Shown here piece by piece: positions 30,283 through 35,504 of a stretch of 64,000 nt of DNA. The stretch comes from a virus. Location: IMG/VR virus record IMGVR_UViG_3300032304_001060, positions 1-64,000 of that record, one strand, 5' to 3'. The notes under the pieces were generated by a model. It made no database searches and was not told the DNA's origin. It was given only the letters and a program-made list of their open reading frames with translations. Numbering within the stretch: position 1 is the stretch's first letter; the number at the start of each line of letters is the position of its first letter. A program made the translations under genes and the position numbers.

Positions 30283-30550
30283 TTTCGCAAACGAATTGGC
30301 AAGCGGTGATCTTCTTAAAAATCTCGATCAGCAATTATCAATTCACTTTCAACACAATTGCTATCCACCTGTTCCACTCATCATGATCAACGTTGCTATT
30401 GATGCGATCAACGCGGTCAATGCTGGCGATTATGGTTACGAGATTTTGTTGCCAGATGAAATCTCATTCAAAGGCTCACACATCGTGCATGCAATCAACG
30501 CGGTTGATGCACTTCGACTACACGCATGGATAGGAGTAGATGACGAATGA
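30272..30550 (+). CDS. Hypothetical protein
   Basis: MGSNFANELA...HFQHNCYPPVP. Confidence 0.6.
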   Translation: MGSNFANELASGDLLKNLDQQLSIHFQHNCYPPVPLIMINVAIDAINAVNAGDYGYEILLPDEISFKGSHIVHAINAVDALRLHAWIGVDDE

Positions 30551-30791
30551 CAATCTTTCTTCTTGCTGTTATCGCTGGCATCGCTGGCGTTCTTCTGGAG
30601 AACTTCTTTTACGATCGATCACAATCGCATCGTCGGTTCTAACAGACTTCGATCTGCGGAACTACATAGATCGAGTCACGACTTGAAACGATGAGATGGA
30701 ATCGCGTTCGTCGAATTTATTTTGGATTTTCGACTAACCCCAAGTCCAATAATCAATTCATAGGTTGCAGGGTTCTTTTGCTACTTCTAAA

Positions 30792-30845
30792 GATCGAAAC
30801 AGCACTTCGGTGCTGTCGCGTTGTTACGCAACGCCTGATGAGATC
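30792..30845 (+). ncRNA. Type II hammerhead ribozyme
   Basis: GAUC-GAAA-CAGCAC(UUCG)GUGCUG-UC^-GCGUUG(UUACG)CAACGC-CUGAUGA-GAUC has all core nucleotides and three perfect stems. Predicted cleavage after C30817. Confidence 0.9.
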
Positions 30846-30882
30846 ACTTATCGGTACACCTAGACATGAAACGGAATAACAA

Positions 30883-31764
30883 ATGACCACAGATACAAAA
30901 TCTCTCTTCGTACCAACACTCGCATCAACATCTCACTACATACCTCGCACATTCGCTGGCCACGTCGGCGAATTTGAAACATTCGATTACGCACTTGAAA
31001 ACAATCTCAATGTGCTCATCGAAGGCGAGACTGGAACTGGTAAGACTTCTGGCGTTATGGCGTACTGCGCCCAACGTCATCTCAACTTCTTTGCTGTTCC
31101 TTGCAACAGCGCAATTGATTTCACTCAGGTGATCGGCGGTCTATTCCCGAATGCTGATGGCAAATTGGAATGGGTTGACGGCGGTATCACTCGCATCGTT
31201 CGTGAGGGCGGTGTCTTGTTGATTAACGAATTAAACAATGCGCCGAAGAATCTCTCTCAGTACCTCATGTCATTACTTGATGATCGTCGCTCGATCACTC
31301 TCATGGGTCATGGCAACGAGGTTGTGACTGCACACAAGGACTTGCTGATCGTTGCAGATCAGAATCCAAATTATCGTGGCACTCAACTTCTCAATGAGGC
31401 ATGGAAAGATCGCTTCGAGATTAAATTGCGTTACAACTACGACAACGCGATTGAGAAGAAGATCGTTACATCGTCAGCACTTCTGGAACTTGCGAATGGA
31501 ATTCGTTCTACATCGCGCCAGAATGAATACGCATCAGATCGCGGAACGATCTTCGAGACCCCAGTATCGCCTCGTCTACTTAAGACGTTCGAGAAAATCG
31601 CTCGTGATCTTTCATACGACTTTGCAGTCGATAACTTCGTCAACAACTTTACCGATGAAGAACGCCCTGCGGTGAAGATGCTCATCGAAGGTGCTTCATA
31701 CAACATCAAGGAAGAACTCGGTCTTGCTGTTGATTCAATCACCACCGAACACGCCAACGCGTAA
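30883..31764 (+). CDS. MoxR/CbbQ-like AAA+ ATPase
   Basis: GETGTGKT, LEWVDG, LLINELN, NPNYRGT..LNEAWKDRF and SPR. Confidence 0.85.
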   Translation: MTTDTKSLFVPTLASTSHYIPRTFAGHVGEFETFDYALENNLNVLIEGETGTGKTSGVMAYCAQRHLNFFAVPCNSAIDFTQVIGGLFPNADGKLEWVDGGITRIVREGGVLLINELNNAPKNLSQYLMSLLDDRRSITLMGHGNEVVTAHKDLLIVADQNPNYRGTQLLNEAWKDRFEIKLRYNYDNAIEKKIVTSSALLELANGIRSTSRQNEYASDRGTIFETPVSPRLLKTFEKIARDLSYDFAVDNFVNNFTDEERPAVKMLIEGASYNIKEELGLAVDSITTEHANA

Positions 31765-31773
31765 GGAGATTAC

Positions 31774-33672
31774 ATGTCATCAATCAAACTCTATGAAGAT
31801 TTCCTTTTAGGAGATCAATCAGAGGCTAAGGAACAACGTCGTATCGCAGATGAAAAGCGACAGAGACTTGAACGATTCACTCAATTCTTTGGTCGTGTGA
31901 ATTCTGCATTCACATTCCGCAAAGTGACTGTCAAGGTTGAGGACTCACCTATCGGTGCACCAGCGTGGTCTGGTGCATCGGAGGTGACATTCAATTCTCG
32001 TTTACTTGATCTCGATAGTCCGCAATCAATTGCTGGCTTGAAAGGTCTTGATCTACACGAGATCAGTCACATTCTTTATACGCCACGTGAGGGCTCTGAG
32101 ATATTTGATTACGTCAAAGAGAACGATTATCTACAGGCATACAACTGCCTCGAAGATCAACGTATCGAGACACTCTTTACATCAAAGTATCCGTCAACGA
32201 TTGATTGGTTCACAGCCACGATCTTGATTCACTTCGTTGATAAGCCAGAGGCATTCAACGCTTCTTATCCGTTGCTACGCGGTCGTAGATACTTACCCGT
32301 TGAATTGCGTGCACGCTCTCGTAACGCATATATCAATCAATCTAATCTCGATGAAATCTGCGAGATCGTCGATGCCTATCGCTCTCTTATCTTTCCTACT
32401 GATACTGAACAAGGAAAAGATTTAATTGCGCGATTCCACAAACTATTGCCAAAGCAGGATTCACCTGCTGGCGAAGGACAGGGCACACAGACTGTCACAG
32501 TACGGATTCAAGACCCGTTCGGACATGGTGAGAGGCCACAGGAGGGTATTGAGTCATCGGTTGATTCACGCCCTGTATCGCCACTTAAGCAGAAGCAGGA
32601 TCGTGCACGTTCACAGGCCAACGATGGTGAAGATGATTCGGCTCTTGCTGATTCACTTCGCAACGATGATCTCGTGATCGATATTGATCTATCTGGTGCA
32701 GGTGACGATGGTGATGCTGATGCTGATGGTGATGGTGATGATTCTTTGGATTCTGATAATTCATCTGATGGTGATTCTGCTGGTGATTCTGCTGGTGACA
32801 TGACAATCATTCAAGATTTTCTCGATGATCTTTTGAATGACGAAAATGTTGCTAGTGAAATCAACAACATCATTCGACAAATTGGTGGAGCACCTTCTCT
32901 TTCTACCAATGATTCGAAAGAACCGAAGATCAAGGACTACATGTCGCTCAGTCCAGATGCAGATACATTTCATGCATCACTTTCTTTCGGTCGTGAATTA
33001 GAACGATTGAAAGCATCATTCGACCCTGCATGGGATAAGTACGAGTCACAGGGGCGTATCGATGCACATCGTTACCTTCGCGGTGATGATCTCGATACAG
33101 TCTTTGATCAATGGAATGAGGGTCGTGAAGATGCGACTGAAATTTCATGTGTGATCATGCTCGATACTTCTGGCTCGATGAATGGCACTAAAGCAACATC
33201 TGCATACAAAGCCATGTATGCAATTAAACGTGCACTCGACAAGATCAATGCAGAATGTACTGTGATCACATTTAACGATTCAGTACACACGCTTTATCGT
33301 GCATCAGATAAGGCTGGTAACACTCTTCGTCATGCTGGAACTGGTGGCGGTACAAACGCTGATGAGGCAATCAGGTATGCGACCAAAGTGTTGGCCGAGA
33401 CTGAGAAGCCTGTACGTGTTCTCTTCGCAATTACCGATGGGGATTGGTACGGCGATCAGACTCTCAACGATGAAGCGATCAGTCGCTTGTCTCGTGCTGG
33501 TGTGCTTACAGCACTTGCCTACATTCCAGAAAAAAAATCGTCAGTAAATCTTGCTGACATCAATTCTCATCAATGCGAGATCAAAGCAGTCGTGCGTAAT
33601 CCAATTGACCTAATTGGAATGGCTCGATCAATTACTCGCTACGCGATCAATCGCAGATTGATCAACAACTAA
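31774..33672 (+). CDS. vWA (MIDAS) protein with N-terminal HExxH region, partner of the AAA+ ATPase
   Basis: LHEISH...NCLEDQRIE, an acidic linker, and MLDTSGSM, GGGT, ITDG. Confidence 0.85.
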   Translation: MSSIKLYEDFLLGDQSEAKEQRRIADEKRQRLERFTQFFGRVNSAFTFRKVTVKVEDSPIGAPAWSGASEVTFNSRLLDLDSPQSIAGLKGLDLHEISHILYTPREGSEIFDYVKENDYLQAYNCLEDQRIETLFTSKYPSTIDWFTATILIHFVDKPEAFNASYPLLRGRRYLPVELRARSRNAYINQSNLDEICEIVDAYRSLIFPTDTEQGKDLIARFHKLLPKQDSPAGEGQGTQTVTVRIQDPFGHGERPQEGIESSVDSRPVSPLKQKQDRARSQANDGEDDSALADSLRNDDLVIDIDLSGAGDDGDADADGDGDDSLDSDNSSDGDSAGDSAGDMTIIQDFLDDLLNDENVASEINNIIRQIGGAPSLSTNDSKEPKIKDYMSLSPDADTFHASLSFGRELERLKASFDPAWDKYESQGRIDAHRYLRGDDLDTVFDQWNEGREDATEISCVIMLDTSGSMNGTKATSAYKAMYAIKRALDKINAECTVITFNDSVHTLYRASDKAGNTLRHAGTGGGTNADEAIRYATKVLAETEKPVRVLFAITDGDWYGDQTLNDEAISRLSRAGVLTALAYIPEKKSSVNLADINSHQCEIKAVVRNPIDLIGMARSITRYAINRRLINN

Positions 33673-34387: not shown

Positions 34388-35109
34388 TGGAGACAGCAAC
34401 AATTGATCGCGTAGAGAAACTACGCAATTACTATGAAAAGTACGATCATGCAGTCGGCACTACATTCACAACAACATGGTGTGGGAGACGTTTTCGATTG
34501 CCTTATGTAGCAGAGGTAACACAACTTGAACGCGAGTACATTCGAGAGGAGTACGAAGGGTTCGAATTAATAATCACAAAATCTTCTTGGAAGTATCAAG
34601 AGATTTTTGATGTCAACGGCGATCACTTTAAACATGGCAACGTATTAAAAGATGAAATTGATGGGCGTGGGAAAGAACAATTCCGTACTGAGTATATTGC
34701 TTTTGCATGGGAGATCAAAGATCACTACCTTCATGCAGAGTTAAATACTCCGCATGCTTTTGAATTTTCAGTTTTGTGTGGCCTTGGAATCTCGGATTCG
34801 TATGACAAGACTCGAAAGACTGCAATTAAAAAGTTAGACACACTTAAAAAAATCAAAGATGTCTTGCCACGTCTTATCGCAATCTGTGATGAGAGGTTGT
34901 TGATTGGTCATGATCAGAAAGAAAAGTACAGACCATTCAACGTACTAATTGGTGATGAGGTTTTCGTTCAAGCCCATGGGCGAAAGCGCAAGGGAATTGT
35001 GGTTGGTACAACTGGCTCACGATTTATCGTGGGCTATGTAACGCCTTCAAATTATCGTGACCTTAAGTACAAGACCCTTGGAATGGAACATCTATGGGTG
35101 AAGCCGTAA
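34387..35109 (+). CDS. Hypothetical protein with C-terminal KOW/SH3-like segment
   Basis: 240 aa, IGDEVFV...RKGIVVG. Confidence 0.55.
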   Translation: METATIDRVEKLRNYYEKYDHAVGTTFTTTWCGRRFRLPYVAEVTQLEREYIREEYEGFELIITKSSWKYQEIFDVNGDHFKHGNVLKDEIDGRGKEQFRTEYIAFAWEIKDHYLHAELNTPHAFEFSVLCGLGISDSYDKTRKTAIKKLDTLKKIKDVLPRLIAICDERLLIGHDQKEKYRPFNVLIGDEVFVQAHGRKRKGIVVGTTGSRFIVGYVTPSNYRDLKYKTLGMEHLWVKP

Positions 35110-35504
35110 AACTATGTGGGAGGTGCAAGGTTGAACAATCAATTGACAACTTCGACACCTACAACAGAGGTGCAATCGAAGTCTGCAAGCCATGCAGACG
35201 AGAGCGCGGTCGTGAGTACTACAAACGATCACGTCCACACATCAAAGAGTGGATTTACGATTACTTATCGAGTAATCCATGTGTCGACTGTGGTGAGAAC
35301 GACCCCCTGCGACTCGAATTCGATCACCGAAGTGAGAAGCACTTCAACATCGGTAAGTCATTTATCGGTAAAGCAAAGAACATCGAGATCGTCCAATCTG
35401 AGATCGCAAAGTGCGATGTCCGATGCGCTAATTGCCACAAAGTAAAAACGCACAAAGAACAAGACACTTGGAAATACCGAATGTCCGTAGAAAGGAATCA
35501 GTAA
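35094..35504 (+). CDS. HNH-like endonuclease
   Basis: CGRC..CKPC and PCVDCG...LEFDH...KCDVRCANCH. Confidence 0.75.
   Translation: MGEAVKLCGRCKVEQSIDNFDTYNRGAIEVCKPCRRERGREYYKRSRPHIKEWIYDYLSSNPCVDCGENDPLRLEFDHRSEKHFNIGKSFIGKAKNIEIVQSEIAKCDVRCANCHKVKTHKEQDTWKYRMSVERNQ

Follow-up and report, generated by a model that had tools for sequence, protein, structure and literature searches.

We have analysed a window of viral DNA, the 64,000 nt at positions 1 to 64,000 of IMG/VR record IMGVR_UViG_3300032304_001060 (a 94,728-bp viral genome with terminal repeats), for a small RNA element that lies in the leader of two adjacent genes encoding an AAA+ ATPase and a VWA-domain protein. Our sequence comparisons indicate that positions 30792–30845 of the + strand probably encode a genuine type II hammerhead ribozyme, which is predicted to cut itself after C30817 and thereby to separate the upstream genes from the AAA+/VWA message. 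The candidate itself is a real but ordinary phage element of an already known kind; what is modestly new is that it belongs to an abundant compact subclass missed by the Rfam threshold, and that the competing helix predicted for this copy is unusually strong.

Read from 5′ to 3′, the element consists of the 3′ strand of stem II, GAAA, the stem III hairpin, UC, the stem I hairpin, CUGAUGA, and the 5′ strand of stem II (coordinates in Table 1). Stems II, I and III have 4, 6 and 7 bp, respectively; stem II is open while loops close I and III, and both RNA ends exit via stem II, which is the type II topology. Every residue required of a hammerhead core is present (C3 U4 G5 A6 N7 G8 A9, G12 A13 A14, the A15.1-U16.1 pair and H17), and the pairs that adjoin the core are all standard, namely G30842-C30795 (10.1-11.1), G30818-C30834 (1.1-2.1) and A30799-U30816 (15.1-16.1). 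The predicted cut is 65 nt upstream of the ATG at 30883. An earlier reading of the sequence alone (the sequence-only reading) had proposed a canonical type II hammerhead in this leader; on re-reading the sequence all of its coordinates are correct, and the proposal is now also backed by a family covariance model and by covariation within the family. A longer stem II could be drawn from the flanks (UAA/UUA, UACU/GGUA) with a gain of about 2 kcal/mol in the window; we dropped it because the 5′ flank differs in L002, the viral contig whose ATPase is 97% identical.

A permissive descriptor, which asks for no fewer than 4 bp in stem I, 3 in stem III and 2 in stem II, has 30792–30845 as its sole match in the 94.7-kb genome. 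Five hundred first-order Markov genomes gave 56 such matches, the best with 16 stem pairs against 18 in the candidate. Viral contigs were then searched with a pattern in which the stem II and core of the candidate were fixed and both hairpins left free. It matched at least 119 contig stretches, against our estimate of about 1 expected by chance; the search that gathered the family was accordingly seeded with the core and stem II of the candidate itself. The type II hammerhead fold is found in 94 of 100 distinct pattern sequences, with a stem III of 5–12 bp and a stem I that almost always has 6 bp and a 5-nt loop of the form U-NNN-G/U. Two residues are invariant without being part of the pattern, the A just 5′ of stem II (99/100) and the U that begins loop I, and the candidate has both.

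In an alignment of 71 family sequences standard pairs fill 98.7% of the cells, and the covariation score is 0.70, compared with 0.13 after shuffling and at most 0.12 when the partners are slid. Both sides have changed in all six stem I pairs and in four of the six stem III pairs; stem II was fixed by the search pattern. These contigs also hold hammerheads whose 4-bp stems II differ by compensated changes (GGUC/GACC, GUCC/GGAC, GCUC/GAGC), and members with such other stem II sequences keep the A at position -1, the 6-bp stem I and the 5-nt loop I that starts with U. A covariance model made from the 71 sequences with the window excluded (R1) matches the candidate over its full length (model positions 1–64, window 30788–30853) at 65.3 bits (E 1.7e-14), and its search of the 94.7-kb genome found no second copy.

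The check with hammerhead covariance models that the sequence-only reading had suggested came out differently for two models, with R1 recognizing the site strongly and the Rfam type II model, RF02276, giving it 21.1 bits, under its gathering threshold of 37. That score comes from a narrow 67-nt search and is a local match to model positions 4–56 of 66, in which CGAAAC, stem III, GUC, stem I and CUGAUGA align column for column. An RF02276 search of the whole genome missed the site, a gathering-threshold Rfam scan of the whole window was empty, and an Rfam scan at E<=10 of a 251-nt stretch gave no hammerhead; likewise, scanning 14 family loci at the Rfam cut-off reported no copy of the same architecture. 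The score is low because the Rfam model describes the pseudoknotted form, unlike the candidate. The candidate shares with described type II hammerheads (Perreault et al. 2011, PMC3088659; RF02276) the core, capped stems I and III, the open stem II, the GUC triplet and a phage intergenic setting, but the described consensus and curated model have a stem II of 2–3 bp and a long loop I, about 10 nt in size, to which the 3′ tail is paired in a pseudoknot of at least 4 bp, whereas the candidate and its family have 4 bp, 5 nt and no pseudoknot. Viral contig L109 revealed the cause of the Rfam miss, as it carries an Rfam-consensus pseudoknotted type II hammerhead (L109:1664-1724, - strand, 44.3 bits) as well as a compact GAUC-type copy (L109:490-539). 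A blastn search of the region against cultured phages gave no match, and literature searches for the string that joins stem II and core returned nothing relevant.

Complementarity between loop I and the tail averages 2.73 across 98 members and 2.85 with permuted tails, i.e., there is no enrichment. On this ground the family is taken to be a pseudoknot-free form. We infer that the A at -1 and the loop I U may together make a stem I–stem II contact that replaces the loop–loop interactions of other natural hammerheads; stem I–stem II contacts other than the pseudoknot are listed in the legend of Figure S5 of Perreault et al. (2011, PMC3088659). As judged from these alignments, the family is characterized by an open stem II of 4 bp, a stem I of 6 bp whose 5-nt loop starts with U, an A before stem II, and the lack of a loop I–tail pseudoknot. 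The family consensus for positions +1 to +6 after stem II is AGAAAC (A in 92%, G in 58%, then AAAC). In several viral contigs (L118:3035-5750, L081:6321-7292, L162:1151-2500, L050, L116 and L161) consecutive gene junctions hold compact type II hammerheads, two to five per contig, and in five contigs (L050, L081, L116, L161 and L162) identical copies of ribozyme plus leader occur two or three times, a sequence pattern that suggests duplication of a ribozyme-plus-ribosome-binding-site cassette.

Family members have a strict position between genes. Among 116 distinct family contexts, the next start codon is 20–29 nt downstream in 85 and 10–34 nt downstream in 108, and the upstream stop codon falls within -1 to +3 nt of stem II (from 1 nt inside to 3 nt before it) in 93; this stop is often a UAG that borrows the first G of GAUC. 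The candidate has its start codon 37 nt downstream. In L002 the upstream stop directly adjoins the ribozyme, as is typical of the family; in the window it is 149 nt away because a 148-nt segment intervenes there. The placement of the family agrees with, and extends, the 2011 description of prophage hammerheads (PMC3088659). The genes 3′ of family members are diverse, mostly small and of unknown function, with no dominant family. An association of the family with AAA+ genes is not supported, since an AAA_5 gene is downstream in just one other of 111 family loci (L076:88-1302, - strand, encoding a 405-amino-acid ATPase). At L051:1066-1965 (- strand) the ribozyme precedes a gene for an ArdC-like anti-restriction/zincin protein, which recalls the ardA association reported in 2011.

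The ATPase has relatives in 42 viral contigs, with 45–97% identity, and a regular expression, the descriptor and R1 all find the ribozyme in only one of these, L002. Since 41 of the 42 do without a hammerhead, it is dispensable for the AAA+/VWA genes, and by this comparison the ribozyme occupies a variable junction only sporadically and is no fixture of these genes. It is not specific to AAA+/VWA operons, both for this reason and because the family precedes many unrelated genes. In closer relatives the ribozyme slot holds a gene of 90–100 amino acids that ends about 22–28 nt before the ATPase start.

Another structure occurs at the equivalent junction in a group of relatives with 70% identity, where an inverted repeat or hairpin, GUGUUAGUG...CACUAACAC, is conserved. 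It is carried by L016 (about 2900–2945), L017, L021-L023, L025, L026 and L036, with related forms in L003, L030 and L038; in L030 the arms are swapped in order and a U-run follows. In L019, L020, L024 and L027 the loop of the repeat contains a structured insert of 145–190 nt. Rfam gave nothing at the inverted-repeat junction, and the repeat is absent from the genome of the window; it might serve as a terminator, processing site or operator, or be a small mobile element. Across the loci of 20 relatives, Rfam found tRNAs only; at the junction in question it reported no further class of ribozyme.

L002 matches the window without a difference over the 108 nt 30792–30899 and is 92–93% identical in the flanks, so that about 7–8 differences would be expected. 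Contigs of natural strains, from four freshwater metagenome runs of three studies, support this: among the matches listed they have many substitutions and small indels up to 30788 and from 30900 onward, and none between. The 148-nt segment 30637–30784 is precisely absent in L002 and in runs X5 and X4 (joint 30636>30785) and is present in other strains; no homologue of it was found in the loci examined. The idea that this segment is a structured RNA processed by the ribozyme has little support, as its fold z-score is only -1.83, it varies heavily among strains and it has no homologue in those loci. A contig of run X3 hinted that a diverged orthologue of the ribozyme might exist behind the same leader sequence; the viral scan for it returned only L002 and two chance matches, and two metagenome scans gave nothing or chance matches.

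The folding of the site depends strongly on how much of the 3′ tail is included. For 30788–30849 alone the hammerhead is the minimum free energy structure (-21.5 kcal/mol, with a stem II probability of 0.91). With nine more bases, an 8-bp hairpin that is specific to this copy and is formed by CUGAUGAG and CUUAUCGG, in which the pairs run from C30835-G30854 to G30842-C30847, is predicted to sequester both CUGAUGA and stem II's 5′ strand; the fold that contains it has -27.2 kcal/mol, against -21.5 for the hammerhead, and the stem II probability falls to about 0. The resulting energy difference of 5.5 kcal/mol is surpassed by just 2 of 105 family members (median 1.1), and 1.4% of shuffled tails fold equally well. 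In the family as a whole the catalytic strand has a modest but consistent bias toward tail pairing; its mean z is -0.97 +/- 0.10, and the consensus GAUCAG, which gives a CUGAU/AUCAG mini-hairpin, accounts for part of it. Seven members extend that mini-hairpin to a 6-bp helix (e.g., L046, L061, L132, L146, L048 and L154). On these models the alternative hairpin may slow or gate cleavage, or it may form after cutting and lock the product. In the latter case its formation would release the upstream product and give the AAA+ message two consecutive 5′ hairpins. Covariation cannot choose between gating and post-cleavage formation because the hairpin region is invariant.

Several results weigh against an active ribozyme that serves the AAA+/VWA message. 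By nearest-neighbour folding, the alternative hairpin is favoured over the active fold by 5.5 kcal/mol once the nine further bases are included; the candidate lacks the pseudoknot to which the described type II consensus owes its fast cleavage, as loop I and tail pair over 3 bp at most where at least 4 are required; RF02276 stays below its 37-bit gathering cut-off; 41 of the 42 relatives carry the same AAA+ gene and no hammerhead; no RNA run is among the sequencing runs found to contain the locus DNA; and a 5′-hydroxyl (5′-OH) end can destabilize mRNA, as that left by the glmS ribozyme triggers degradation by RNase J1 (PMC3328962). Some of this would suit a hammerhead by descent that is here largely silenced or attenuated by the hairpin at 30835–30854 and persists as a tolerated passenger or a conditional switch. 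The fold energies, an energy difference in the top 3% of the 105 members, the few shuffled tails that fold as well, the lack of a pseudoknot to hold stems I and II together and the sporadic distribution all point that way, and we regard it as unlikely rather than negligible. The block 30792–30899 is unchanged where the flanks differ by about 7%, which argues for constraint, yet the alternative hairpin is inside that block. Moreover, the energy model omits core and tertiary stabilization, stem II can form before 30847–30854 exit the polymerase, and the leaning of the whole family to tail pairing may be normal function and not a defect.

It is also conceivable that the ribozyme is active and matters mainly as a mobile or recombining junction cassette of hammerhead plus ribosome-binding site, its effect on the AAA+/VWA genes being incidental. 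It has no linked machinery for transposition or homing, and the strict placement between stop and start codons argues for selection on an expression-level role, so we think this improbable in spite of the sporadic distribution, the identical ribozyme-plus-leader copies that recur within contigs, the diverse downstream genes, an indel polymorphism that ends 7 nt from the 5′ edge of the ribozyme, and the filling of the same slot in relatives by a 95-amino-acid gene or other inserts. The cassette and message-separation readings are in any case mutually compatible. Finally, an ATG-started frame of 62 codons (30691–30879), whose product has no family match, extends over the site and ends 4 nt short of the AAA+ gene, and the motif could in principle be part of a coding sequence or due to chance. 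We give this hardly any credence. L002 and some natural strains lack 30637–30784 and with it the start of the frame, and other strains have 1- and 2-nt indels at 30694, 30715, 30726 and 30776; because of these indels and the deletion of its start the frame is ruled out as a gene. As for chance, the R1 score and the simulated genomes exclude it. A type II hammerhead that separates the upstream genes from the AAA+/VWA message is the reading that we prefer.

The element belongs to a known large class of phage hammerheads that most likely cut long messages into separate pieces; its family fits tightly between a gene's stop codon and the ribosome-binding site of the gene that follows. Transcription of the + strand would yield an RNA that folds round the core and cuts itself after C30817, parting the small upstream genes from the AAA+/VWA message. 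Because of hammerhead chemistry, the upstream product would end in the stem III hairpin with a 2′,3′-cyclic phosphate, and the downstream product would begin with a 5′-OH on G30818 at the very base of the stem I hairpin, without a single-stranded 5′ overhang. The AAA_5 gene would be the first gene of this 3′ product, behind a cut-to-ATG leader of 65 nt. A single cut would in this way supply the upstream mRNA with a 3′ hairpin and the downstream mRNA with a 5′-terminal one, and since both new ends would be helix-capped the two halves probably decay and are translated independently. The RNase III hairpins between the early genes of phage T7 similarly cut a polycistronic transcript at gene junctions and leave hairpin-capped ends, as the hammerhead would; the T7 sites need a host enzyme and leave a 5′-phosphate and a 3′-OH, whereas a hammerhead needs no host factor.

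The sequence-only reading had further proposed that the 5′-OH would let the AAA+/VWA message evade 5′-monophosphate-stimulated decay by RNase E or RNase J. For RNase E such evasion is reasonable. A base-paired 5′ terminus should also protect an mRNA from decay that depends on the 5′ end, and the better argument for stabilization, we infer, is that the 3′ product begins directly with the stem I hairpin. The RNase J part does not hold as a general statement, as in the one worked example the glmS 5′-OH marks its mRNA for RNase J1 (PMC3328962). An effect of cleavage on message stability is plausible. The candidate and glmS are both self-cleaving RNAs of 5′ leaders with a 5′-OH on the 3′ product, but glmS has a different fold, depends on a metabolite and leads to RNase J1 decay, and the candidate has a hairpin-buried 5′ end and no evident ligand site.

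Phages and prophages commonly carry type II hammerheads, which flank single genes and have been proposed to process long phage transcripts (PMC3088659). With the clustered hammerheads of prophages (Perreault et al. 2011, Figure 3) the candidate shares an intergenic placement in one transcription unit and the proposed cutting of a polycistronic RNA; family contigs carry 2–5 copies, like the prophage clusters, and the candidate genome has a single copy. In Desulfovibrio vulgaris three hammerheads of the same type, also beside phage-like genes, cleave in vivo as seen by cyPhyRNA-seq (PMC8782182), whereas cleavage of the candidate is a prediction. One might go on to propose that compact, pseudoknot-free hammerheads with a 4-bp stem II form a distinct gene-separator subclass in which tail pairing acts as a built-in post-cleavage lock or timing switch; taken jointly, we consider this doubtful.

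The ribozyme is inside a + strand gene run of about 28.5–40 kb (Table 1), and no promoter-like or terminator-like sites were found between 30642 and 30883. The leader CACCUAGAG-AAACGGAA at 30857–30882 is conserved before the AAA+ start in L004-L014, L030, L037 and L038 (55–97% protein identity) and is probably an unusual ribosome-binding region. Similar leaders, CCUAGAGGAG or CCUAGGAGG, come after hammerheads in three contigs that are unrelated, L091, L095 and L097. By their ATPases the closest cultured phages are Brevibacterium phage Cantare and Gordonia phages (41–43% amino acid identity), whose hosts are Actinobacteria; R1 had no match in two of these phage genomes. The DNA of the locus was found in freshwater metagenomes.

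Table 1. Features of the ribozyme site and its surroundings (positions in the window)
Feature	Position	Strand	Basis or remark
Type II hammerhead ribozyme, complete, 54 nt (predicted)	30792..30845	+	Sequence; R1 65.3 bits over 30788-30853; RF02276 21.1 bits over 30795-30841
A at position -1, candidate tertiary-contact residue	30791	+	In 99/100 family members, outside the search pattern
Stem II 3′ strand, GAUC, nt 11.4-11.1	30792..30795	+	Pairs with 30842-30845
Core G12 A13 A14	30796..30798	+	Sequence; aligns to Rfam consensus
Stem III hairpin, 7 bp, A15.1-U16.1 at base, UUCG tetraloop	30799..30816	+	Sequence and folding; A30799-C30805 with G30810-U30816, loop 30806-09
Predicted cleavage site, C17 (30817) / G1.1 (30818)	30817..30818	+	From core alignment
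Stem I hairpin, 6 bp, 5-nt loop UUACG	30818..30834	+	Sequence and folding; G30818-G30823 with C30829-C30834
Core C3 U4 G5 A6 U7 G8 A9 (CUGAUGA)	30835..30841	+	Sequence; RF02276 and R1 alignments
Stem II 5′ strand, GAUC, nt 10.1-10.4	30842..30845	+	Sequence
Alternative 8-bp hairpin, loop AUCA	30835..30854	+	Minimum free energy fold once 30846-30854 are included
37-nt leader, ribozyme to ATG	30846..30882	+	3′ part CACCUAGA...GAAACGGAA is the gene's conserved translation-initiation region in relatives
Small hydrophobic open reading frame, 31 amino acids, last conserved gene before the ribozyme	30547..30642	+	TAA abuts the ribozyme in L002
Non-coding 148-nt segment between small open reading frame and ribozyme	30637..30784	+	Bounded by TTCTAA direct repeats; present or absent among strains
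AAA_5 (CobS/MoxR-like) ATPase gene	30883..31764	+	Pfam PF07728 E 8.7e-21; phrog_249 E 1.1e-36
VWA-domain (CobT-like) protein gene	31774..33672	+	Pfam VWA_2 and VWA
HNH endonuclease gene, a few genes 3′ of the VWA gene	35094..35504	+	phrog_2255 E 2.9e-29

A 2019 review concluded that the purpose of bacterial and phage hammerheads needs more work (PMC6765202), and this locus leaves the open question of their role unchanged. It does offer a usable test bed for expression, with a single-copy ribozyme, relatives of the same operon with and without it, and two variants of the upstream junction. As an abundant compact type II form escapes the Rfam threshold, annotation pipelines under-count phage ribozymes. 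The type II topology, in which a hairpin would stand on both new RNA ends, may be a simple reason why this permutation is favoured at gene junctions.

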